Shown here: positions 1,160-30,745 of the stretch, piece by piece
Numbering within the stretch: the stretch's first letter is position 1
How the letters are laid out: each line of letters starts with the position of its first letter
Assembly (NCBI GenBank): GCA_963704725.1
Contig: OY969934.1
Location: 128,001-192,000 of the forward strand
Origin: an uncultured Actinomycetes bacterium
GTDB taxonomy: Bacteria > Actinomycetota > UBA4738 > HRBIN12
Length of the DNA stretch: 64,000 nt
Direction: 5' to 3'
Position numbers and translations under genes: made by a program
Notes under the pieces: generated by a model
The model's input: only the letters and a program-made list of their open reading frames with translations
Databases searched by the model: none
What the model was told of the DNA's origin: nothing

Positions 1160-1492
1160 GTGGCGCTGATGGGTGCGGTGACTGACGGGGACTTCGAGGA
1201 GCTGGTGCTCCGGTCGGACACGCCGGTGCTGGTGGACTTCTGGGCCGAGTGGTGCGTGCCCTGCCACATGGTCTCGCCGGTGGTCGAGGAGATCGGGCGC
1301 GACAAGGGCTCGACCCTGCAGGTGGCGAAGCTGAACATCGACGAGAACCCCGAGGTCACGCGGAAGTACGGCGTCATGAGTATCCCCACGCTGATGCTGT
1401 TCAAGGATGGCGCGGAGGCGGCCCGCGTGGTCGGCGCTCGCGGCAAGGACGCGCTCCTTCGCGAGATCGACCCGCACCTCGTGGCGGTCTGA
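1160..1492 (+). CDS. trxA: Thioredoxin
   Basis: VDFWAEWCVPC active site, SIPTL cis-Pro motif. Confidence 0.95.
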   Translation: MALMGAVTDGDFEELVLRSDTPVLVDFWAEWCVPCHMVSPVVEEIGRDKGSTLQVAKLNIDENPEVTRKYGVMSIPTLMLFKDGAEAARVVGARGKDALLREIDPHLVAV

Positions 1493-1541
1493 GCCCGACC
1501 GCCGGTTGCCGTCCCGGTTCGCCTGCCGGGACACTGCGTGC

Positions 1542-2630
1542 GTGGACCTGATCCGCAAGGGCAACCGGGGCGAGGCCGTGCGCGACGTCCAGCACCGACT
1601 CCTGGCGGCCGGGCTGCGCGTCGACGCCGACGAGCTCGACGGGACGTTCGGAGCCTCGACCGAGCGCGCGGTCCAGGAGTTCCAGCGCCGGCGCGGCCTT
1701 CCGCCGGACGGGCTGGTCGGCCTCGACACCTGGAACCAGCTCGTCGAGGCCGGCTACCGGATCGGCGACCGCACCCTGTACCTGCGCTCCCCCGCCTTCC
1801 GCGGCGACGACGTCCGGGAGCTGCAGCGCATGCTGAACGCCCTGGGATTCGACGCCGGCAAGGAGGACGGGATCCTCGGCGCCCAGACGTCGGGAGCGGT
1901 CCGGGACTTCCAGCACAACGTGGGAGCCAGGATCGACGGCATCGTCGGGCTCGACACCGTCCGCTCCCTGGAGGGCATGCGCCCGCCACTCGGAGCTCCC
2001 GGGCGGGCCGTGGTCCGCGAGGCAGAGGCGGCCCGCCACATGGGCGCCACCCTGTCGGGATCCGTGGTCGCGGTGGATCCGGGTCACGGCTCGGGCGACC
2101 CGGGGCTCGTCGCGAACGGGGTCGTCGAGTCCGAGCTGACGTGGCGCGTGAGCGAGGCACTCGCGGCGGAGCTGGGCCGGCGAGGCGCCCGCGCCCTCCT
2201 CCTGCGAGCGCGAGACGAGAACCCCGAGGTGAGCGACCGCGCTCGCCGCGCCAACGCCGCCGAGGCGATCCTGTGCGTCTCGATCCATCTCGGCGGGGGC
2301 GAGCTCACCCCGTCCGGCGGCGTGTGCTGCTACTACGGCACGCCCACGACCCACTCCCCCATGGGCCTGCACCTGGCCGAATCGATCCGCGCGGAGCTGG
2401 CCCGGATGGCCCTGCCCGACGGCGGCGTGCGGCCGCTCGCGATCGCGATCCTGCGCGAGACGCGCATGCCGGCCGTCCAGATCGAGCTCGCGGTGGTGGC
2501 CGATCCGAAGGAGGCCGCTCGGATCCGTGAACCGACCTTCGACCAACAAGCCGGGGGCGCGATCGCCGAGGGCATCGAGCGGTTCCTCGGCGCCGGGCGT
2601 CCCTCGCAGACGCGGGCCGCGTCAGGCTGA
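1542..2630 (+). CDS. cwlM: CwlM-like protein: two peptidoglycan-binding domains plus Amidase_3 domain
   Basis: Two DG.FG..T..AV..FQ PG-binding repeats; DPGHG, E, SIH and AVQIE amidase motifs; position after trxBA is the usual cwlM site. GTG start at 1542 inferred. Confidence 0.8.
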   Translation: MDLIRKGNRGEAVRDVQHRLLAAGLRVDADELDGTFGASTERAVQEFQRRRGLPPDGLVGLDTWNQLVEAGYRIGDRTLYLRSPAFRGDDVRELQRMLNALGFDAGKEDGILGAQTSGAVRDFQHNVGARIDGIVGLDTVRSLEGMRPPLGAPGRAVVREAEAARHMGATLSGSVVAVDPGHGSGDPGLVANGVVESELTWRVSEALAAELGRRGARALLLRARDENPEVSDRARRANAAEAILCVSIHLGGGELTPSGGVCCYYGTPTTHSPMGLHLAESIRAELARMALPDGGVRPLAIAILRETRMPAVQIELAVVADPKEAARIREPTFDQQAGGAIAEGIERFLGAGRPSQTRAASG

Positions 2631-2750
2631 GCGTCGGGTCGCCGGCGGGCGCGATCGGCGCGAGAGGAACAGGAGCAGCACCCCCAGGAGCGCGCCCAGG
2701 CCGACCGCCTTGCCGGCGCGCCGAACCTCGTCCGGGGAGAGGCGGTTCAC
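2622..2750 (-). CDS. Putative 42-aa single-TM small protein
   Basis: GTG start 6 nt after a TACGAT -10-like hexamer; hydrophobic AVGLGALLGVLLLFL followed by an Arg-rich tail; fills the intergenic gap. Confidence 0.4.
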   Translation of the reverse strand: MNRLSPDEVRRAGKAVGLGALLGVLLLFLSRRSRPPATRRSA

Positions 2751-2783
2751 CTCGGTATCGTAGCCAGCCCGACCCGGAGGGAG

Positions 2784-3737
2784 ATGCCCGTGCGGTTCAG
2801 CCTGATGCTGGAGGGGCAGGAGGGCGTGTCGTGGCCGCAGTGGCTCGCGATCGCGCAGGCCTGCGAGCGGCTCGGGTTCGAGGGCCTGTTCACCTCCGAC
2901 CACTACCTCTCGGTCGTGCCCGAGCCCGGCTCGAACGACGCGTGGACGCTGCTCGGCGCCCTGGCCGCGCGGACCCAGACGCTTCGCCTGGGCACGATGG
3001 TCTCCCCCGTGACGTTCCGGCTTCCGGCCGTCCTGGCCAAGGCCGCCACGACGGTCGACCGGATCTCGGGGGGCCGGGTGGACGTCGGGATGGGCGCGGG
3101 CTGGTGGGAGCAGGAGCACCGGACCCACGGCTTCCCGTTCCCCCCCGTCGGCGAGCGCCTGGAGATGCTCGAGGAGCAGCTGGAGATCGTCCACGGTCTG
3201 TGGACCGAGGAGGAGCTCTCCTTCGCCGGCCGCCACTACACGATCGAAGGGGGACGCTTCGAGCCCAAGCCGGTGCAGCGGCCGCACCCGCCGATCATCG
3301 TCGGCGGCAAGGGCGGACCGGCCATCGCCCGGCTCGCCGCCCGGTGGGCGGACGAGTTCAACCGGGTGGGCGGCACGCCCGAGGACGTGCGCGAGGCGTT
3401 CGAACGCGTTCGCGCGGCCGTCGGCGCAGCGGACCGGGATCAGGCGTCGTTCACGACGTCGTTCATGACCTGGGTCTTCGTGGGCCGGACGGAGGACGAA
3501 TGGCGTGCCCGGGCCGACCGCGCGCGTTCGCTCGACCCCACGGCGGGCCCGCTCGACGCGTACCTGGAGGACGTCTCGCGGGACTGCATCGTCGGCACCG
3601 TCGATCGGGCCATCGATCGCATGAACGCGTATGCCGACGCGGGCGTGCAACGCTTCGTCCTGAACCACGAGCTGTTCGACGACCTCGAGCACATCGAGCT
3701 CATCGCCACGGAGATCCTCCCCCACGTCGTGGCGTGA
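2784..3737 (+). CDS. LLM class (probably F420-dependent) oxidoreductase
   Basis: FTSDHY, LRLGTMVSPVTFR, GMGAGW and PIIVGG motifs; GGAGG RBS. Confidence 0.9.
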   Translation: MPVRFSLMLEGQEGVSWPQWLAIAQACERLGFEGLFTSDHYLSVVPEPGSNDAWTLLGALAARTQTLRLGTMVSPVTFRLPAVLAKAATTVDRISGGRVDVGMGAGWWEQEHRTHGFPFPPVGERLEMLEEQLEIVHGLWTEEELSFAGRHYTIEGGRFEPKPVQRPHPPIIVGGKGGPAIARLAARWADEFNRVGGTPEDVREAFERVRAAVGAADRDQASFTTSFMTWVFVGRTEDEWRARADRARSLDPTAGPLDAYLEDVSRDCIVGTVDRAIDRMNAYADAGVQRFVLNHELFDDLEHIELIATEILPHVVA

Positions 3738-23136: not shown

Positions 23137-23961
23137 GTGAGCAGCGAAGCCTGGGCGCTCGCCAACCGGGCCGCCGCCGTTGCCGGCGTGACCCTGCGTG
23201 CCCTGTCCTCCCTGGAGGACGCCGATCGCATCGCGGGCGTCCTCGTCGCGACGTGGGGGGAGGAGCAGGTCGTGCCCCGCGAGATGCTCCGTGCCCTCGC
23301 CGAGAGCGGGAACGAGCCGTACGGAGCGTTCGCCGGTGAGGAGCTCGTCGGGTACGTCCTGGGCTGGGCGGGGGTGGACCCGGGAGAAGGCGTCCACGTC
23401 CACTCGCACATGCTCGCGGCGCTCCCGGCGTGCCGGCACCGAGGCGTGGGGTACGCGCTGAAGCTCGCCCAGCGAGCCCAGGCCCTCGAGCGAGGGATCC
23501 GCACCGTTCGGTGGACCTTCGACCCGCTCGTGGCGCGCAACGCCTACTTCAACCTGAGCAAGCTGGGCGCCGTCGCGGATCGGCTGGAGCGGAGCTTCTA
23601 CGGAGAGATGACCGACTCGGTCAACCGCGGCGACCGAAGCGACCGGCTCGTCGTGCGCTGGGACCTGGAGCGGGAGCCGGGATCTCGGGCGACCGGCGCG
23701 CCGGGATTCCAGGACGCGATCTCGATCGGACGGGAAGGCCCGCATCGCTCGGATCCCTCGGTCGACGGTGCCGCTCGCGTCTTCGTGCAGATCCCTGAGG
23801 AATACCACGCCCTGCGCGAGGCGGACCCGTCGGCCGCGGGCCGCTGGCGGGACGTGGTGGCCGAAGCCCTCGAGGCGTGCTTCGGCGCCGGCCTGCACGC
23901 GACGGGATTCCGTCGCACCGAGGCCGTGAGCGGCTACCTCATGACCCGAGACGCGTCGTGA
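23137..23961 (+). CDS. GNAT-family acyltransferase (putative D-amino acid N-succinyltransferase)
   Basis: HSHML, GVGYALKLAQR, WTFDPL..RNAYFNL and DRL motifs; coupled to the OSBS/NSAR gene. Confidence 0.8.
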   Translation: MSSEAWALANRAAAVAGVTLRALSSLEDADRIAGVLVATWGEEQVVPREMLRALAESGNEPYGAFAGEELVGYVLGWAGVDPGEGVHVHSHMLAALPACRHRGVGYALKLAQRAQALERGIRTVRWTFDPLVARNAYFNLSKLGAVADRLERSFYGEMTDSVNRGDRSDRLVVRWDLEREPGSRATGAPGFQDAISIGREGPHRSDPSVDGAARVFVQIPEEYHALREADPSAAGRWRDVVAEALEACFGAGLHATGFRRTEAVSGYLMTRDAS

Positions 23962-25070
23962 CGAGAGTCCGGTCGGTCGAGCTGCGGTTGGTCGGCCTCC
24001 CGCTCGTCCGTCCCTTCCGGACGAGCTTCGGCGAGATGACGCGCAAGGAGTGCGTCCTCGCGCGCGTGGAGACCGACGCGGCGGTCGGCTGGGGCGAGTG
24101 CGTCGCCGGGGTCGAGCCGGACTTCTCCGGCGAATGGAACGAGGGAGCCTGGCTCGTGCTGCGCGACTTCCTGATCCCCGCCCTGTTCGGCGCGGGGGAC
24201 GTTTCGCCGCACGATCTGGGGCCGGCGTTCGCGTTCGTGCGAGGTCACCCGATGGCCAAGGCGACCCTCGTCGACGCCTTCCTCGACGCGGCGTTGCGGG
24301 CCGAGGGCCGTTCCCTCGCGACGTTCCTCGGCGCCGAACGGGAGCGCGTGACGTGCGGCGTGTCGGTGGGCATCGCGCCGACGACGGAGCGGCTGCTCGA
24401 GCAGGTGGGTGGCTACCTCGCCGAGGGCTATCGCCGGATCAAGCTGAAGATCGAGCCCGGCACCGACGTCGAGCGCGTCCGCGCCGTCCGCGAGGCCCAC
24501 CCCGGCATCGTGCTCTCGGTCGACGCGAACGCCGCGTACACGCTGGAGGACGTGAAGGTCTTCCGGGACCTCGACGAGCTCGACCTGCTCATGGTGGAGC
24601 AGCCGCTCCACCATGAGGATCTGGTGCAGCACGCGAAGTTGCAGTCCGAGATCGAGACCGCGGTGTGCCTCGATGAGTCGATCCGCTCGCCGGCCGACGC
24701 CGCCGCCGCGATCGAGCTGGGCGCCTGCCGGATCGTCAACGTGAAGCAGGGGAGGGTGGGCGGCGTGCTCGAGGCCAGGCGTGTGCACGATGTGTGTGCG
24801 TCGCAGGGGGTGCCGGTGTGGTGCGGGGGCATGCTGGAGACCGGGATCGGTCGCGCCACGAACGTGGCGCTCTCGGCCATGCCGGGCTTCACGCTGCCCG
24901 GGGACACCAGCGCGAGCGCGCGGTACTTCCCCGAGGACCTCACGACGCCGTTCGAGCTCTCGCCGGACGGGACGATGGCGGTGCCCGGCGGTCCGGGCAT
25001 CGGGGTGGATCCGATCCCGGAGCGTCTCGAGGCCTGCACCCTGCGGCTCGAGCGGTTGGAGAAAGAGTGA
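23958..25070 (+). CDS. menC: o-succinylbenzoate synthase / N-succinylamino acid racemase (enolase superfamily)
   Basis: PFRTSFG, KLKI, DAN, EQP, LDES and WCGGMLE motifs. Confidence 0.88.
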   Translation: MTRVRSVELRLVGLPLVRPFRTSFGEMTRKECVLARVETDAAVGWGECVAGVEPDFSGEWNEGAWLVLRDFLIPALFGAGDVSPHDLGPAFAFVRGHPMAKATLVDAFLDAALRAEGRSLATFLGAERERVTCGVSVGIAPTTERLLEQVGGYLAEGYRRIKLKIEPGTDVERVRAVREAHPGIVLSVDANAAYTLEDVKVFRDLDELDLLMVEQPLHHEDLVQHAKLQSEIETAVCLDESIRSPADAAAAIELGACRIVNVKQGRVGGVLEARRVHDVCASQGVPVWCGGMLETGIGRATNVALSAMPGFTLPGDTSASARYFPEDLTTPFELSPDGTMAVPGGPGIGVDPIPERLEACTLRLERLEKE

Positions 25071-25266: not shown

Positions 25267-25983
25267 GTGAACGATGAGGGGCGGTCCATGAGGAAACGGG
25301 TCATCCGGGCGGGCGAGATCGAGATCGAGGACTCGGAGGGCAGGGTCCGCGCCCGCTTCGGGGTGACGAACGAGGACCTCCCGTTCCTGTCGTTCTACGG
25401 AGCGGACGAGAAGCTCCGGGCCCGGTACGGCGTCCAGCCGGACGGCTCGGCCGGGCTCGCCATCGCCGACGAGGAGGGAAAGGTCCGAGCCACCTTCGGG
25501 CTCTTCTCGGACGGCTCGGCCAGCATGGCGATGGTGGACCGCAACGGGAAGGTGCGTGCCAAGTTCGGCCTGGGCTCCGAGGGCTCGCCGACGCTGGCGC
25601 TGCGGAACAAGGACGGTGAGCTCGGCTTCGTGTACTCGCTTGCCCAGCAAGGGTCTCCGACGATCTCGCTGCAGGACGAGGACGGGAAGGTGCGCGCCCG
25701 GCTCGGCCTGGCGGCGGAGGGATCTCCGATCCTGCGGCTCCTGAACAAGGACGGCGAGCTCCGCGCCATCATGGGGCTCACCGGCGACGGCGCACCGGTC
25801 CTGCAGTTCCTCGGCAAGGACGGGGACCCCACGTGGACCGCCCCGAGCTCGTTCGCGGGCCCGGCCTCCGACGAGGGACCCGCCGCCAAGACCGGACGAT
25901 CGTCGAGGAAGGATCCCGTCACCGAGGATGCCCCCGCCGCGTCACCAGCCCCGGCCGAGCCGGAGGCCTCGGAGGGGAGCTGA
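25267..25983 (+). CDS. Hypothetical protein with about seven 23-aa beta-type repeats
   Basis: Repeats of D/N-x-x-G-K-V-R-A-x-F/L-G-L-x-x-D/E-G-S-P-x-L; low-complexity C-terminal tail; start may be ATG 25288. Confidence 0.85.
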   Translation: MNDEGRSMRKRVIRAGEIEIEDSEGRVRARFGVTNEDLPFLSFYGADEKLRARYGVQPDGSAGLAIADEEGKVRATFGLFSDGSASMAMVDRNGKVRAKFGLGSEGSPTLALRNKDGELGFVYSLAQQGSPTISLQDEDGKVRARLGLAAEGSPILRLLNKDGELRAIMGLTGDGAPVLQFLGKDGDPTWTAPSSFAGPASDEGPAAKTGRSSRKDPVTEDAPAASPAPAEPEASEGS

Positions 25984-25989
25984 AGCCGC

Positions 25990-26499
25990 CTGACGGGGTG
26001 GTGGGTCGCGGCCTTCGTCGTGCAGTGGATCCTGCTCGCGGTGCTCACCGTCGTCGTGGTGGCGCTGGCGCGGCAGATCGGCGTGCTGCACCTGCGGCTG
26101 GACCCGCTGGGGGCGCTCGAGGTGGACGACGAGGGCCCCCCGATCGGTGAGGCGCCGCCCGAACGCACCTCGCGGACCCGCGACGGCACGCCGGTGCTCG
26201 TTGGGGGACCGGGGCCGATGCGGCTCCTGGCCTTCGTCTCCGAGACGTGCCCCATCTGCGAGCGTGTGCTGCCCTCGCTGCCCGCGGCCGCCGCCGCCGC
26301 CGGGCTGATCCCCCAGGTGGTGTCGGACCCCGAGCTCGAGGCGGTCTACCGGGTGCCGGGCGTGCCGTTCCTGGTCGTGTTGGACGAGCTCGGCGTGGTG
26401 CGCTCGAAGGGGACCGTCAACTCGCTCGAGCAGATCGAGGGCCTCGTCGACACAGCGCGGCGGCGCATCGACGACGACGCGCGGGTTCGGACCGGCTGA
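25990..26499 (+). CDS. MauD-like membrane-anchored thioredoxin-fold protein
   Basis: N-terminal TM, LARQIGVLHLRL, GP.IGE.AP, CPIC, VPGVPF cis-Pro and KGTVNSLEQIE motifs; start is CTG 25990 or GTG 26020. Confidence 0.85.
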   Translation: MTGWWVAAFVVQWILLAVLTVVVVALARQIGVLHLRLDPLGALEVDDEGPPIGEAPPERTSRTRDGTPVLVGGPGPMRLLAFVSETCPICERVLPSLPAAAAAAGLIPQVVSDPELEAVYRVPGVPFLVVLDELGVVRSKGTVNSLEQIEGLVDTARRRIDDDARVRTG

Positions 26500-27023
26500 T
26501 GGGAGCGGTGGCCCGTGCGGAGACCGAGCTCGCCCGCCGGACGAGCCGGCGATCGTTCCTGGGGAAGGTGGGACGCGCCGTCGTCGCGCTCGCCGGCGGG
26601 CCCATGGTCGCGGTAGCGCTGGCGCCGGAGCGGGCCGAGGCCAACCACATCTGCGGGCACACGTACACGACGGGCTCCTGTCCCCACCCGTACGCGCCGC
26701 TCTCGCGGACCGACGCCTACGGCTTCCCGATCCATCCGCACTTCGGCTACCCGGTCGACGACAACGGCTTCATCTACCTCTCCTCGCGACAGCCGCGCCG
26801 CAAGGTGTGCCAGACCGTGGTGCCCGAGCACTACCCGTTCGTCCATCACCCCCGATACGGCGGTGGATGGAGCCGATGCTGCAACGGCCGGGTCCGTCAC
26901 ATCCAGGACTGCTGCTCGTCATCGCGGACGCGGATCAACGGCGACGGCTCGGTCCGGGGGTACTGCGCCCGGAGCCTCCGCGTGTTCTGCATCACGTACC
27001 GTGAGCTGGACGTCCGGTGCTGA
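26499..27023 (+). CDS. Tat-exported Cys-rich protein resembling the methylamine dehydrogenase light chain (MauA-like)
   Basis: ATG overlaps the upstream stop (TGATG); SRRSFL twin-arginine motif, AEA cleavage site, 10 Cys, GWSRCC ... IQDCCS ... YC ... FC pattern. Confidence 0.8.
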   Translation: MGAVARAETELARRTSRRSFLGKVGRAVVALAGGPMVAVALAPERAEANHICGHTYTTGSCPHPYAPLSRTDAYGFPIHPHFGYPVDDNGFIYLSSRQPRRKVCQTVVPEHYPFVHHPRYGGGWSRCCNGRVRHIQDCCSSSRTRINGDGSVRGYCARSLRVFCITYRELDVRC

Positions 27024-28234
27024 GCGAGCCGCTCGTCGCGGCGGTGGTCGCCGCGTCGGTCGTCGCCGGGATCACGGCGCTGTTCGGCCCCTGAGGGCTC
27101 TCGATGGTGGAGACCATCACCCCCGTGGTGCACGGGGGCCGGCGGAGCAGGTGGGCGACGTTCCTCGCCCTGCACGTCGCCGGCGCCACGCTGGCGGCCG
27201 TGGCGTTCGGCGCCCTGCTCGGCGAGGCCGGCGCGCTGCTCGGCGCGCCGTGGGGGAGTGCGGGCGTCGCGCTCGTCGCCGGGTCGGCGGTCCTGTACCT
27301 GGCGCGGGAGACGGTCGGCCTGCGGATCCCGGTTCCCCAGCTCCGCCGCCAGGTCCCCGACTGGTGGCGGACGTTCTTCGGGTTCGGGCCGGCGTCCTTC
27401 CTCTACGGGCTCGGGCTCGGGGTGGGGTTCCTCACGTTCCTGTCCGGCGGCACGCTCGTGGTGGTGGTGGTGGCGGCCGTCGCCGGGGGCCGGCCGGCGC
27501 TCGGGGCGATGCTGATGGGGCCCTTCGGGCTGGCGCGGGGGATGACCGCGCTGGTCGCGATGCGCGCCCGGACGCCGGAGGGCGGCTCCGAGCTCGTCGG
27601 GCGGATCGCCCGGTCTGCGGGCCGTCCCGGATGGCGGGTGGTGCGCTCGGCGGCGCTCGCGGCCGTCGCCGTCGCCGGGCTCGCGGCCGGAGGTCGGCTC
27701 GAGGGCCGGCAGCTGGGAGCCGTTGCGGCGGCGGTCGTCGCCGTGGCGTTCGCCGCGGCCGGCGTGGCCAAGCTGGCGGATCTTCGCTCGTGGCGTCGGG
27801 GCCTCGGCGCGTACGTGCTCCCCCGCCCCGTGGAGCGCGCCGCCTCGGTCGTGGTCCCGGGCGCCGAGCTCGTGGTGGCGACACTGCCGTTCCTCGGACT
27901 GCGCTCGACGGCGGGGCTCGTCGCCCTCGTGGCCCTGGCGGCCTTTTCCGCGGCGACGGTTCGCGCCCGGATCCGGGGCGGCAGCCGGCTTGCGTGCGGC
28001 TGCTTCGGATCGGCGACGCCGCGCGACTACCGGCTCCTGCTCCTTCGCAACGCGCTCCTGGCCGTGGCGGCGATCTCGGCCTGGCGAGGCGGGGGGGATG
28101 CGCCGGTCGCCGCGCTCCGGATGCCGGCGGGATCGGAGCTCCTGCCGGCTGCCATCGTCGCGACCGGGCTGGGGCTCGCCGTGTGGGCCGGGGCGCAGAC
28201 CGCGATCGCCGTTCGGCGCGGGGCCCGGCAATGA
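27017..28234 (+). CDS. MauF/CcdA-like + MauE fusion membrane protein; candidate selenoprotein (in-frame UGA at codon 26)
   Basis: GTG at 27017 overlaps the upstream gene end and is in frame with ORF 27104; reads MLSEPLVAAVVAASVVAGITALFGP-TGA-GLSMVETITP; RRQVPDWW and LYGLGLG.GF.T motifs; C-terminal AKL...AEL...CGCFG...LRN MauE motifs. Confidence 0.78.
27095..27122 (+). promoter_or_regulatory. Putative bacterial SECIS element
   Basis: Perfect stem GATGGT (27103-27108) / ACCATC (27113-27118) with G-initiated loop GGAG, plus possible lower GGG/CCC pairing, directly 3' of the in-frame TGA. Confidence 0.6.
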
Positions 28235-28827
28235 AGCGGATCGCGCTCGCGGTCGCCGGGATGGCCGCCGTAGCCGTGGCGGCCCTCGCGCTTCCGGCCG
28301 GGGCGACACACACGAACCAGACGGACCCGAACGATACGCCCGGCCGCCTCGACGTTCGCGGGGTCGTGCTGGCTCACGACGAGACGCCGCGGTGGCGCAT
28401 CTCCACGTTCGCCTCGTGGACGACGCGGCAGCTCTGGGACGCGGGCGGGCTCGTCGTCGAGCTCGACACGACGGGCGAGGCCGGGATCGACCACCTCATT
28501 GTCGTCCGATCGGACGGCCGGAAGCTCGTCGCCACCCTCTTCCGGGTTCGGGCCGACGGCTCCGAGCGCCGGGTCGCCAACCTGCACGCCGCCAAGGACG
28601 GCCGGGCGGGGGTCGCGGTCTCGGTCGCGCTGCACCGGCTGACGATCGGCTCCGAGCGAACCTCGTACTTCTGGTCGGTGCTCTCGATGTTCACGGGCGC
28701 GGCGTGTCCCCAGACCTGCCTCGACCACGTGCCCGACGAGGGCATGATCGAGCAGCCGCTGCCCGGGATCACGCCGTCGCCCACACCCACGACGACACCG
28801 AGCCCGACGCCCGGTCTCGGCGGTTGA
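28231..28827 (+). CDS. Secreted hypothetical protein with a Pro/Thr-rich tail
   Basis: MKRIALAVAG...AGA Sec-pathway signal peptide; ATGA overlap with the upstream gene; CPQTC pair; PSPTPTTTPSPTP tail. Confidence 0.8.
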   Translation: MKRIALAVAGMAAVAVAALALPAGATHTNQTDPNDTPGRLDVRGVVLAHDETPRWRISTFASWTTRQLWDAGGLVVELDTTGEAGIDHLIVVRSDGRKLVATLFRVRADGSERRVANLHAAKDGRAGVAVSVALHRLTIGSERTSYFWSVLSMFTGAACPQTCLDHVPDEGMIEQPLPGITPSPTPTTTPSPTPGLGG

Positions 28828-28879: not shown

Positions 28880-30745
28880 ATGTCCGCCGACGCCCTGATC
28901 ACCAACGCCAACGGGCGTCGCCCCGGGCTCGGCCGGGGGCGGGAGCCGGCGGCCGCGCTCACCGCGGTGGTCGAGGACCTCGCGGGCGAGCTGTCGCTCC
29001 GCCCGCTCCTCGAGCGGATCCTCCTGCACTCGACCGAGCTGCTCGGGTGCGACGCCGGATCGATCTGCCTCGTCGACGAGTCCGCCGGTGTCTACCGCAA
29101 GGAGGCGGACATCGGGGTGGCCTGCCAATCGGGACGCGTCTTCCCCCTGACGGAGGGCGTGACCGGCGCGGTCGTGAAGCGTCGGGGCCCGGTCATCTTC
29201 GCCGACTACGCCGAGGTGCCGGGCGGCCACGTCCGGCCGGAGGACCGCGCGTCGCTGCGCGGCGTGATCGGGGTCCCGATCTGGTGGCGTGGCGAGATCG
29301 TGGGGTCCTGCGTGGTGTTCTCCCGAGACCCCGGGCGCACGTTCTCCCTGCAGGACGCCGAGCTGCTCGGGCTGTTCGCGAAGCACGCCGCCATCGCCGT
29401 GACGAACGCGCGCCTGCACGAGGCCTCGGAGGCCAACGCGAGGGCGGAGGCGACCGCGGCCGAGAGGGAGCGCATCGCGCGGGAGGTGCACGACACCGTG
29501 GCGCAGGGGCTGGTTTCGGTCCTGCTCCAGCTCCGGGCCGCCGACGGCGCGGTCGCCGAGGGGCGGTCCGAGGACGCCGTGGCCGCGCTCCGCGAGGCGC
29601 GCGCGACCGCAGAGGCCGCCTTCGAGGAGACCCGCCGCAGCGTGCTCGGCCTGGCGCCGTCGCCGCTCGAGGGCCGCTCGCTGGAGGAGGCGCTGGAGCT
29701 CGAGGTCGACTGGGCGAACCGGATCGGCGTGGCGGACCTGCGGCTGGTGACGGCGGGACCGCAAGTACCGTTGCCGGCTGAGCTGGCGCTCACGCTCTTC
29801 CGCATCGCGCAGGAGGCGCTCACGAACGCGCTCCGCCACGCGCGGGCACGATCGGTGCGGTTCGGGCTCGTGTACGGGCCGGCCGACGTCACGCTGCTCG
29901 TCCAGGACGACGGGGCGGGGTTCGACCAAGCGCAGATCGATCAGGCCGGCGAGCTCGGGCACGGGGGCCTCCGGGGGATGGCCGAGCGGGCGCACCTTCT
30001 CGGAGGCACGCTCGAGCTCGACTCGACCCCAGGATGGGGAACGCGCGTCCGCGCCTCGATCCCCCTCCCGCTGGCTTCGCCCGCCGATGCCGAGCCGCTG
30101 GTCGGTCCCGTCCGGGTGCTCGTGGTCGACGACCACGCGATCGCCCGGGCGGGGATCGTCCGGCTCCTGTCCTCGGCGGGCGCGGCGGGGAGCGACCCCG
30201 CGCTTCGGATCGTCGGCGAGGCCTCCTCGGGCGAGGAGGCGGTGGCGGCCTGGCGCCAGCTTCGGCCGGACGTGGTCCTCATGGACCTCCGGATGCCGGG
30301 CGGTGACGGGATCGACGCGATCGCGCGGATCCGTCGCGAGGACCCGCAGGCTCGCATCGTGGCGCTCACGGCGTTCACGAACGACGATCTGGTCGCCGGC
30401 GCGATCCGAGCCGGCGCGCGCGGCTACGTCGGCAAGAGCGCAACGGTCGCGGAGCTCGTCGGCGCAGTGCTGAGCGCCTCGCGCGGCGACACAGTGCTGT
30501 CGGGTGCGGCGGCGGACCGTCTCCGCTCGCACCTGAATGGGTCGGGCGGCTACCTGGCCCTCACCGACCGCGAGCGCGAGGTGGTTCGCTACCTCGAACG
30601 CGGAACGCCAGATCGGGAGATCGCCGCGGCGCTGCATATCTCGATCAAAACGGTCGAGAAGCACGTCGGCTCCATCCTGCGCAAGACCGGCAGCCAGAAC
30701 CGCACGCAGGTTGCCGCGTTGGCGCGTGAGTACACTCGCGCCTAG
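28880..30745 (+). CDS. Hybrid GAF - HisKA_3 histidine kinase - REC - LuxR HTH regulator
   Basis: RERIAREVHD, QEALTNALRHA, DDGAGF, VDDH, VLMDLRMP and LTDREREV...TVEKHV motifs in one ORF. Confidence 0.9.
   Translation: MSADALITNANGRRPGLGRGREPAAALTAVVEDLAGELSLRPLLERILLHSTELLGCDAGSICLVDESAGVYRKEADIGVACQSGRVFPLTEGVTGAVVKRRGPVIFADYAEVPGGHVRPEDRASLRGVIGVPIWWRGEIVGSCVVFSRDPGRTFSLQDAELLGLFAKHAAIAVTNARLHEASEANARAEATAAERERIAREVHDTVAQGLVSVLLQLRAADGAVAEGRSEDAVAALREARATAEAAFEETRRSVLGLAPSPLEGRSLEEALELEVDWANRIGVADLRLVTAGPQVPLPAELALTLFRIAQEALTNALRHARARSVRFGLVYGPADVTLLVQDDGAGFDQAQIDQAGELGHGGLRGMAERAHLLGGTLELDSTPGWGTRVRASIPLPLASPADAEPLVGPVRVLVVDDHAIARAGIVRLLSSAGAAGSDPALRIVGEASSGEEAVAAWRQLRPDVVLMDLRMPGGDGIDAIARIRREDPQARIVALTAFTNDDLVAGAIRAGARGYVGKSATVAELVGAVLSASRGDTVLSGAAADRLRSHLNGSGGYLALTDREREVVRYLERGTPDREIAAALHISIKTVEKHVGSILRKTGSQNRTQVAALAREYTRA

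Follow-up and report, generated by a model that had tools for sequence, protein, structure and literature searches.

Computational analysis of a 64,000-nucleotide stretch of DNA from an uncultured Actinomycetes bacterium (contig OY969934.1, positions 128,001 to 192,000; hereafter the window) revealed four translationally coupled genes, g1 to g4, on the + strand at 26020-28827. With a probability that we estimate at about 0.6, these genes form a dedicated extracytoplasmic maturation operon for a new cysteine (Cys)-rich protein, built from relatives of three Mau accessory proteins (MauD, MauE and MauF). The evidence consists of homologies to Mau proteins, marks of selenocysteine (Sec) in one of the gene products, synteny across related genomes and gene fusions, all of which were observed by computation. 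The source genome (3.45 Mb) is a single contig estimated to be 95% complete.

The first gene, g1 (26020-26499, GTG start), encodes a membrane-anchored MauD-like thioredoxin with a CPIC motif (26248-26259), and g2 (26499-27023) encodes a 174-residue precursor of the new Cys-rich protein with a twin-arginine translocation (Tat) signal. A MauF-MauE fusion is encoded by g3 (27017-28234), which spans 405 residues when an in-frame TGA (27092-27094) is read as Sec. The last gene, g4 (28231-28827), encodes a secreted protein of no known family that is predicted to bind mature g2. Start and stop codons overlap at each junction, with the letters TGATG between g1 and g2, GTGCTGA between g2 and g3 and ATGA between g3 and g4. 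These junctions had been listed in an earlier model-made reading of the letters (the sequence-only reading), as had a CxxC thioredoxin, a twin-arginine protein with 10 Cys, a membrane protein with UGA and CGC and a secreted protein, and each was found as described. The same reading let the unit span 25990-28827. The genes do lie there, but the start of g1 was placed at the GTG at 26020. Position 25990 is an in-frame CTG, right after the stop codon of the upstream gene, and is a possible alternative start of g1.

MauD-, MauF- and MauE-like modules

The g1 protein was found to carry a hydrophobic helix at its N-terminus in addition to the CPIC motif. When compared by tblastn to the annotated MauD of five canonical mau clusters, g1 displayed 31-38% identity at expect (E) values of 1e-24 to 1e-26, and its best matches on plasmids were annotated MauD proteins within mau clusters, in agreement with the MauD-like assignment made earlier from the letters. 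The NCBIfam model for MauD (TIGR02661) scored 87.4 bits on g1, under its equivalog cut-off of 188.6. By these comparisons, g1 is assigned as a MauD homologue with a CxxC motif and not as a MauD equivalog.

The MauF-like domain of g3 (DsbD_2 superfamily; 27017-27691, approximately residues 1-225) and its MauE (DsbB-like) domain (27713-28081) had likewise been proposed before any search, and both assignments held. A read-through profile of 41 orthologues was aligned by hhalign to the MauF of Paracoccus denitrificans over 179 columns at a probability of 98.3 (E 1.2e-14), and tblastn of g3 detected the MauF of Indioceanicola (E 3e-7) as well as MauE (E 1.7e-5). Residues 233-355 matched Pfam PF07291 (MauE) at 74.5 bits (cut-off 27), and the Cys residues of the CGC motif in this domain (C327 and C329; 27995-28003) were kept in at least 90% of g3 sequences. 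No Pfam or NCBIfam match was detected for the N-terminal half, and NCBIfam release 20 held no model that matched g3. A Cys-form MauF-like relative, P0325, passed the Pfam DsbD_2 model (34.4 bits, cut-off 24.9), which places MauF in the DsbD/CcdA superfamily. The AlphaFold 2 (AF2) model of g3 had a mean predicted local distance difference test (pLDDT) score of 89, and comparison of this model to the PDB by Foldseek revealed nothing beyond weak similarity to assorted transporters (E no better than 0.04), with no solved MauF or MauE recognised. Based on these profile and sequence matches, g3 is identified as a MauF-MauE fusion.

Probable selenocysteine in the MauF-like domain

The in-frame TGA of g3 is located 25 codons past the GTG that overlaps the g2 stop codon, where the first membrane helix ends, and very probably encodes selenocysteine (U26 of the motif FGP-U-GLSM). 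Conservation was examined in a sample of 80 related loci, one genome per species, nearly all of which are labelled uncultured Actinomycetota. The site was TGA in 79 of 79 cases (78 loci and the window), with this part of the gene missing from two more loci. The peptide was kept on both sides of the TGA, as ...VAG(L/W)S(T/A)L(F/Y/H)GP-*-GLSMVETITPVV(H/Y)GG among the loci and as ...ALFGP-U-GLSMVETITPVVHGGR in the window. Of the codons that separate the TGA from the following ATG, Gly27 was invariant as an amino acid with a third-base entropy of 1.64 bit, and Leu28 behaved likewise; as the amino acid is fixed while the third base is free, these codons are taken to be translated. By hhalign, U26 was aligned with the Cys of the P. 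denitrificans MauF motif 'wsPCGyss', and Ser, Met and Glu residues were conserved beside it. The UGA to which the sequence-only reading had drawn attention thus bears the marks of a Sec codon and sits on the conserved Cys of MauF.

A candidate selenocysteine insertion sequence (SECIS) of two hairpins (27103-27138) begins 8 nucleotides past the TGA, with GAUGG-loop-CCAUC (27103-27118, 5 bp and a 6-nucleotide loop) preceding CCCCGUG-loop-CACGGGG (27120-27138, 7 bp). Third codon positions within the stems were frozen (entropy 0-0.2 bit) and loop positions varied. The frozen codons were TCG for Ser (74/74), ACC for Thr (73/73), ATC for Ile (74/74), CCC for Pro (73/74) and GGG for Gly (72/74), while equally conserved g3 codons outside the stems varied freely with an entropy of 1.0-1.7 bit. 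Stem pairs were intact in 70-73 of 73 distinct sequences, and the single-sequence fold of the UGA region had a z-score of -1.26.

The machinery for Sec incorporation that a selenium-dependent operon implies was found complete by genome-wide search, with selD (376 bits), selA (472 bits), selB (293 bits, adjoining selA) and tRNA-Sec (75 bits) all above curated cut-offs. The classical selenoprotein of this genome is encoded by a formate-dehydrogenase-alpha-like gene (G000:C1:1791321-1791731), which has a TGA at 1791429 within SCNRT*HAPSV and then a predicted stem-loop. Of 201 genomes sampled from the class to which the window belongs, 190 had selA; with selA nearly universal, a correlation of g2 with selA is uninformative.

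In databases, g3 is annotated as a protein of 376-378 residues starting from the ATG at 27104. Among the matches listed, 120 relatives were called at 355-385 residues, 116 of them at 375-380, and most were named 'hypothetical protein' or had no name, the rest being called 'MauE/DoxX family' or MauE or DoxX equivalents. A full-library search with the N-terminal domain detected 1337 clusters at E up to 0.001. Among the best 150 of these, 108 have as their first residue precisely the Met that lies four codons past the TGA, as expected of gene callers that take a Sec codon for a stop. The site is covered with Cys in 13 and with Trp in one (a frame-shifted read), and 28 are fragments that miss it.

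Conservation of the operon

When the window proteins were used as tblastn queries against the 80 related loci, g1 was found in 73, g2 in 74 and g4 in 69. The loci without g2 (six) or g1 (seven) start less than 100 bases from the g3 match or, once, 22 bases before g2. Ten of the eleven loci without g4 end within or just past g3, and the eleventh (L080) is a short form with its upstream DNA missing. Co-location of these genes in related loci is more than chance, the operon being conserved among soil Actinomycetota, and a gene-neighborhood survey of these 80 Sec-form loci and of 80 Cys-form loci (see below) confirmed that the homologues stand together in other genomes. Within the class sample, g2 was detected once per genome in 101 of 201 genomes (seven of the 101 being unpublished) and in 60 of 109 high-quality genomes, with a distribution that was patchy by genus. 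Five loci of the window's group (L085, L087, L088, L091 and L093) were found to encode Sec-MauF as a stand-alone protein of about 225 residues, with g4 upstream on the opposite strand.

No match to the profiles of MauB (PF06433), MauG/CCP (PF03150) or MauA (PF02975) was found in the whole genome of the window, whereas the MauB model, as a positive control, found 3 of 3 canonical mau records. Among the 201 class genomes, MauB was limited to two marginal partial matches (21 bits), neither beside g2, and CCP_MauG was detected in four genomes, three of them g2-positive with the match elsewhere in the genome. The lack of MauB and MauG companions, noted before for the window, therefore extends to its own genome, and only stray matches occur in the class sample.

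The exported Cys-rich protein g2

The Tat signal of g2 (TSRRSFLGK) was matched by TIGR01409 (TAT_signal_seq) at 18.9 bits (cut-off 16.7), with R17 and R18 invariant, and the mature part is predicted to begin at about residue 49. All ten Cys of g2 were invariant in 46 of 46 aligned homologues, as were W124 (the sole invariant Trp), H54, H63, H79 and the motifs RINGD and GYC. The family comprises 611 proteins at E up to 0.001, and no Pfam domain was found in the 120 relatives listed of these 611. In the AF2 model of g2, pLDDT was 82-96 across residues 61-174.

The sequence-only reading had proposed that g2 is a substrate with the fold of MauA, and this part of it did not stand. No match to the mature domain was found among Pfam and NCBIfam profiles, nor by profile search of the PDB at E up to 10. 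Foldseek comparison of the model to the PDB had a best E of 0.78, with no MauA chain better than that, and hhalign of the g2 and MauA mature domains reached a probability of 0.2%, even with 67 sequences in the alignment (24 Thermoleophilia homologues added). By contrast, the g2 leader was aligned with MauA leaders at a probability of 96.2 (E 2.7e-9). The 29 aligned columns take in residues that precede the RR motif, and part of the similarity is that of a generic Tat signal. A feature match of g2 to the PF02975 cluster in ESM-Atlas (0.76) was under the trust level of the tool and is taken as a lead only. The MauA light chain contains 12 Cys in total. A five-sequence alignment of true MauA light chains revealed ten invariant Cys together with W114 and W165, which we take to be the residues that form tryptophan tryptophylquinone (TTQ). 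By eye, collinear motifs can be picked out between g2 and MauA (CPHP / CPPG, W..CC / W...C, DCC / DCC, NGD....GYC / ND..WC and FC / Y.C, respectively), but these were picked after the fact and are given no statistical weight. Thus, a resemblance to MauA appears to be confined to the leader of g2, and a MauA fold of the mature protein is not supported by profile comparison or by the structural model. Since its mature domain has neither a sequence nor a fold match, g2 is treated here as a new family that takes the place of MauA and not as a MauA.

The secreted protein g4 and its predicted complex with g2

The g4 protein was found to have a signal-peptide-like N-terminus, a Pro/Thr-rich tail and a conserved CxxxC motif (C159, C163). 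No related family was detected by sequence search of Pfam, NCBIfam or the PDB, and only unnamed Actinomycetota clusters were matched in the ESM Atlas. When mature g2 and mature g4 were modeled as a complex, the median interaction prediction score from aligned errors (ipSAE) was 0.73, compared to 0.00 for the best of three controls. Of 80 solved complexes, 58 attained the mark applied to this score, as did 2 of 110 mismatched pairs, a calibration that is only rough here since the alignments were self-made. Runs of the model shared at least 92% of contacts with a partner pLDDT of at least 76, and the predicted interface is formed by residues 72-100 and 168-171 of g2 and residues 66-112 and 151-164 of g4. 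The model supports, although it does not show, that g4 binds mature g2. This partner role of g4, like the Cys-form operons described below, goes beyond the sequence-only reading.

Cys-form operons and breadth of the Sec form

Cys-form MauF proteins of about 500 residues have an unrelated C-terminal domain, to which the g4 family was found to be unrelated when compared directly. With one of these proteins, P0357, a sample of 80 Cys-form loci was collected, of which 55 are labelled Thermoleophilia (Solirubrobacterales, Gaiellaceae, Baekduia and kin) and the rest mostly other Actinomycetota. Directly upstream of the Cys-form MauF, 45 of these loci have a g2 homologue (identity 36-42%, with E values as low as 1e-41) and 44 have a MauD-like gene. 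Solirubrobacter soli DSM 22325, a cultured organism, encodes the MauD-like module and a MauE domain as one fused protein. As judged from the Thermoleophilia and Solirubrobacter soli loci, the same four modules recur around g2 with other fusions and with Cys in place of Sec. Neither g4 nor g0 (the gene upstream of g1, described below) was found in the 80 Cys-form loci with the window proteins as queries.

Near the Solirubrobacter soli operon (L116), a 710-residue protein with a MopE-type putative copper-binding motif and cadherin/Ig-like domains is encoded upstream (1393-3525), and a gamma-glutamyltranspeptidase is encoded downstream. Three loci with the operon or its Cys form (L067, L078 and L112) are labelled Gemmatimonadales, 'Candidatus Velamenicoccus archaeovorus' and Polyangia, respectively; based on their high identity to Actinomycetota loci, mis-binning seems likelier than gene transfer.

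A read-through search with the N-terminal domain in a phylum sample of 301 Actinomycetota genomes detected 61 matches in 58 genomes. Fifty of these matches contain one TGA (eight of the fifty from unpublished genomes), eight cover residue 26 without a stop and three miss residue 26. The TGA matches include distant paralogues (27-38% identity), some in genomes without g2. Within 18 phylum regions, a motif pattern caught 11, of which eight read WSP*G.SML.SI.P and three WSPCG (the Cys form). Putative MauF-like genes of the Sec type thus have a wide distribution across Actinomycetota, where their annotated products are truncated. A second, distant MauF-like subfamily (27-38% identity to the N-terminal domain of g3) with TGA at the same site (WSP*G.SML.SI.P) was observed in L191, L192, L194, L195, L199 and L202-L204 (genomes G335, G016, G311, G015, G354, G289, G401 and G249), with open frames of about 230-570 residues and in genomes that lack g2. 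For a distant truncated form, P0322, no relatives were found among genome or metagenome contigs.

Genomic neighborhood

Upstream of g1 lies g0 (25267-25983, + strand; likely start at ATG 25288), which encodes approximately eight beta-hairpin repeats of 22 residues (...DG.GKVRA.FGL..DGS...) and no signal peptide. Its best PDB sequence matches were engineered OspA hairpin-repeat proteins (E 4e-7), and it was found upstream of g1 in 62 of the 80 Sec-form loci with an identity between loci of up to 95%. Neither g0 nor g4 had a match in canonical mau clusters. An enolase-superfamily gene (23877-25070, + strand; MR_MLE_C, 162 bits) is an upstream neighbor kept in most related loci; that it has some tie to the operon, perhaps by way of quinone metabolism, is no more than a guess. 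Directly downstream of g4, a hybrid protein with GAF, HisKA_3, HATPase, receiver and LuxR helix-turn-helix domains is encoded (28880-30745, + strand). This gene is not kept beside the operon; weak partial matches (32-43% identity) were detected in 8 of 80 loci, none directly after g4.

Discussion

We propose that g2 would be exported by use of its MauA-like Tat leader and that its ten Cys would then form disulfides through oxidation by the MauD-like thioredoxin g1. In turn, g1 may be re-oxidised at the CGC of the MauE domain of g3, with electrons passing to membrane quinone as in DsbB. The MauF-like domain has the proposed Sec26 as its sole conserved redox residue, for which Paracoccus MauF and the Thermoleophilia operons have Cys, and its selenol may form a transient selenosulfide with MauD or with the CGC of MauE. 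Such a selenol could provide a fast exchange or proof-reading (reducing or isomerising) step for a knotted protein of five disulfides, and mature g2 would finally bind the secreted g4. In this scheme, we infer which way the electrons flow, what Sec contributes, that there are five disulfides and what the g2-g4 pair does; the relay order of the sequence-only reading, from Sec to MauE to MauD, is of the same kind. Dedication of the system to g2 is supported by the presence of g2 in 74 of 80 loci, the other six being cut by contig ends, and by its co-occurrence with the Cys-form operons.

Several observations weigh against this proposal or parts of it. Hairpin 1 of the SECIS candidate displays invariance without covariation, and hairpin 2 has changes on both sides in 3 of 73 sequences. 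A search of Rfam with the UGA region returned two chance-level matches and no SECIS family, and the SECIS assignment therefore rests on position and conservation. Arg residues are abundant in every loop of g3, so that the positive-inside rule gives no topology. The five loci in which Sec-MauF has no adjoining MauE domain indicate that the fusion of the two is not obligatory. MauF has a single redox residue, compared to the Cys pair of DsbD and CcdA, and a DsbD-type mechanism is thus not directly transferable. The g2-g4 complex is a prediction modeled from self-made alignments. Dedication to one substrate is also weakened by a 2026 preprint that argues for MauE as a generalist oxidase (10.64898/2026.03.05.709764).

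If the TGA of g3 were an ordinary stop, the locus would encode a 25-residue membrane peptide and a separate 376-residue protein from ATG 27104. The gene calls would fit this arrangement, as database annotations all start downstream of the TGA and 116 of the 120 listed homologues are 375-380 residues long; Met30 is also invariant and no SECIS family of Rfam was matched. Yet neither TAA nor TAG occurs at this codon in any of 79 loci, among which identity falls to about 45%, Gly27 and Leu28 are conserved with synonymous variation, and Met30 is as conserved in the Cys forms, where it is internal. The shortened product would, moreover, be deprived of the only conserved redox residue of the MauF family in a genome that has the full Sec machinery, and we consider an ordinary stop highly improbable. 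An operon for general oxidative folding, equivalent to DsbA/DsbB with g2 and g4 as neighboring substrates or passengers, is an unlikely explanation that draws on the finding, in the 2026 preprint, that MauE can replace DsbB in E. coli and that 10.2% of MauE-bearing species have MauA (10.64898/2026.03.05.709764). Against it, two classes have g2 in the company of MauD and MauF even though the fusions are rearranged between them, and its presence in only 101 of 201 class genomes would be odd for a housekeeping function.

The remaining explanations concern what is done to g2. The MauF-like domain might carry a metal or selenium as a protein of the UreH/DsbD_2 type, in which case Sec would be a ligand and g2-g4 the metalloprotein that is loaded. 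The family falls in DsbD_2, a superfamily to which putative nickel carriers similar to UreH also belong; a cofactor protein would be in keeping with the Tat export of g2 and its invariant His54, His63 and His79, and Ser, Met and Glu are conserved beside U26. We judge a carrier to be improbable, as canonical MauF serves methylamine dehydrogenase, an enzyme free of metal, Pfam and NCBIfam revealed no metal-binding family for g2 or g4, and the domain is constantly accompanied by a thioredoxin and a thiol oxidase. Similarly doubtful is that g2 is a very divergent MauA-type subunit with a Trp-derived quinone made without MauG, and that g4 replaces the MauB heavy chain. In its favor are the alignment of the leader with MauA leaders (probability 96.2), the position of g2 directly after the mauD-like gene as for mauA, the PF02975 cluster as best ESM-Atlas feature match (0.76), the invariant motifs that are collinear by eye and the predicted binding of g4 to g2. 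The mature domain, however, aligned at 0.2% by hhalign, found no match in Pfam, NCBIfam or the PDB and no MauA chain better than E 0.78; the motif match is post hoc, and g2 has one invariant Trp where TTQ needs two. A bolder extension of the proposed maturation operon, which we advance with little confidence, is that MauF-type proteins are a large unannotated selenoprotein family of Actinomycetota in which Sec or Cys serves as a membrane-embedded thiol-exchange catalyst, the selenol being needed for a two-subunit exported redox protein, g2-g4, perhaps with a cofactor formed, independently of MauG, by the invariant Trp124 and either Tyr155 or a neighboring Cys. If true, the Sec/Cys pair would mark the catalytic residue of MauF in classical methylamine dehydrogenase biogenesis.

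A maturation operon of this type would have several implications. The Sec-containing MauF-like proteins are likely a new family of membrane selenoproteins that is systematically mis-annotated as truncated 'MauE/DoxX' or hypothetical proteins. The Sec/Cys pair points to the functional residue of MauF, a protein to which, as far as we are aware, no role in methylamine dehydrogenase biogenesis has been assigned since the 1990s. With g2 and g4, which are predicted to form a complex, two protein families are newly added. MauD, MauE and MauF would be a maturation kit that can be carried over to a substrate not recognisable as MauA, which extends the 2026 proposal of MauE as a general oxidase. The Cys-form operon of the cultured Solirubrobacter soli DSM 22325 makes the system open to bench testing.

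Comparison with known systems

The operon is most readily compared to the mau cluster (e.g., of Paracoccus denitrificans plasmid 1). All three modules are homologous, and in both systems a small Cys-rich protein with a Tat leader is encoded directly after mauD, the leader of g2 being MauA-like. Unlike the mau cluster, the operon is without mauB, mauG, amicyanin and cytochrome c, and its secreted partner, g4, is another protein. The operon also differs in its fusion of MauF to MauE, in the replacement of the MauF Cys by Sec and in a mature substrate that is not recognisably MauA.

In the 2026 preprint, MauE is described as a DsbB-like disulfide-forming membrane oxidase that replaces DsbB in E. 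coli and requires its CGC for activity (10.64898/2026.03.05.709764). Fusions of MauE to thioredoxin folds are there frequent (8.2% of entries), and with MauA in only 10.2% of MauE-bearing species, the occurrence of MauE without MauA is already published as common. The system described here shares with published MauE the CGC between helices and the thioredoxin-fold partner, which is also fused to MauE in Solirubrobacter soli, and differs in that MauE is fused to a Sec MauF-like domain and tied to one substrate gene. In the text of that preprint, MauF, 'selen' and Actinobacteria/Actinomycetota have no mention. A search of the full-text literature for MauE, MauD or MauF, methylamine utilization and selenoprotein likewise gave, among the matches listed, no paper on Mau proteins as selenoproteins. 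Within the main texts of four selenoproteome studies (PMC13188914, PMC13326102, PMC12013277 and PMC9312934), Mau, DoxX and CcdA have no mention; nor has methylamine in the main texts of the first three, or PF13386, PF02683 and PF07291 in the main text of the 2026 selenoproteome review.

The DsbD, CcdA and DsbD_2 membrane thiol-disulfide transporters are related to the MauF family and likewise have their redox residue in a Pro-Cys-Gly-type motif at the break of the first helix. By contrast, g3 has one redox residue instead of a Cys pair, with Sec for Cys, and the g3 of the window itself reaches no Pfam DsbD model. In common with known selenoproteins, Sec takes the place of a redox Cys in g3 and Cys-form orthologues exist, and a DsbD-like membrane selenoprotein has precedent; TsoB differs from g3 by its UxxxxU motif and rhodanese fusion. 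Compared to these systems, what is new is a Sec family within a known superfamily and the reuse of Mau modules for a new substrate.

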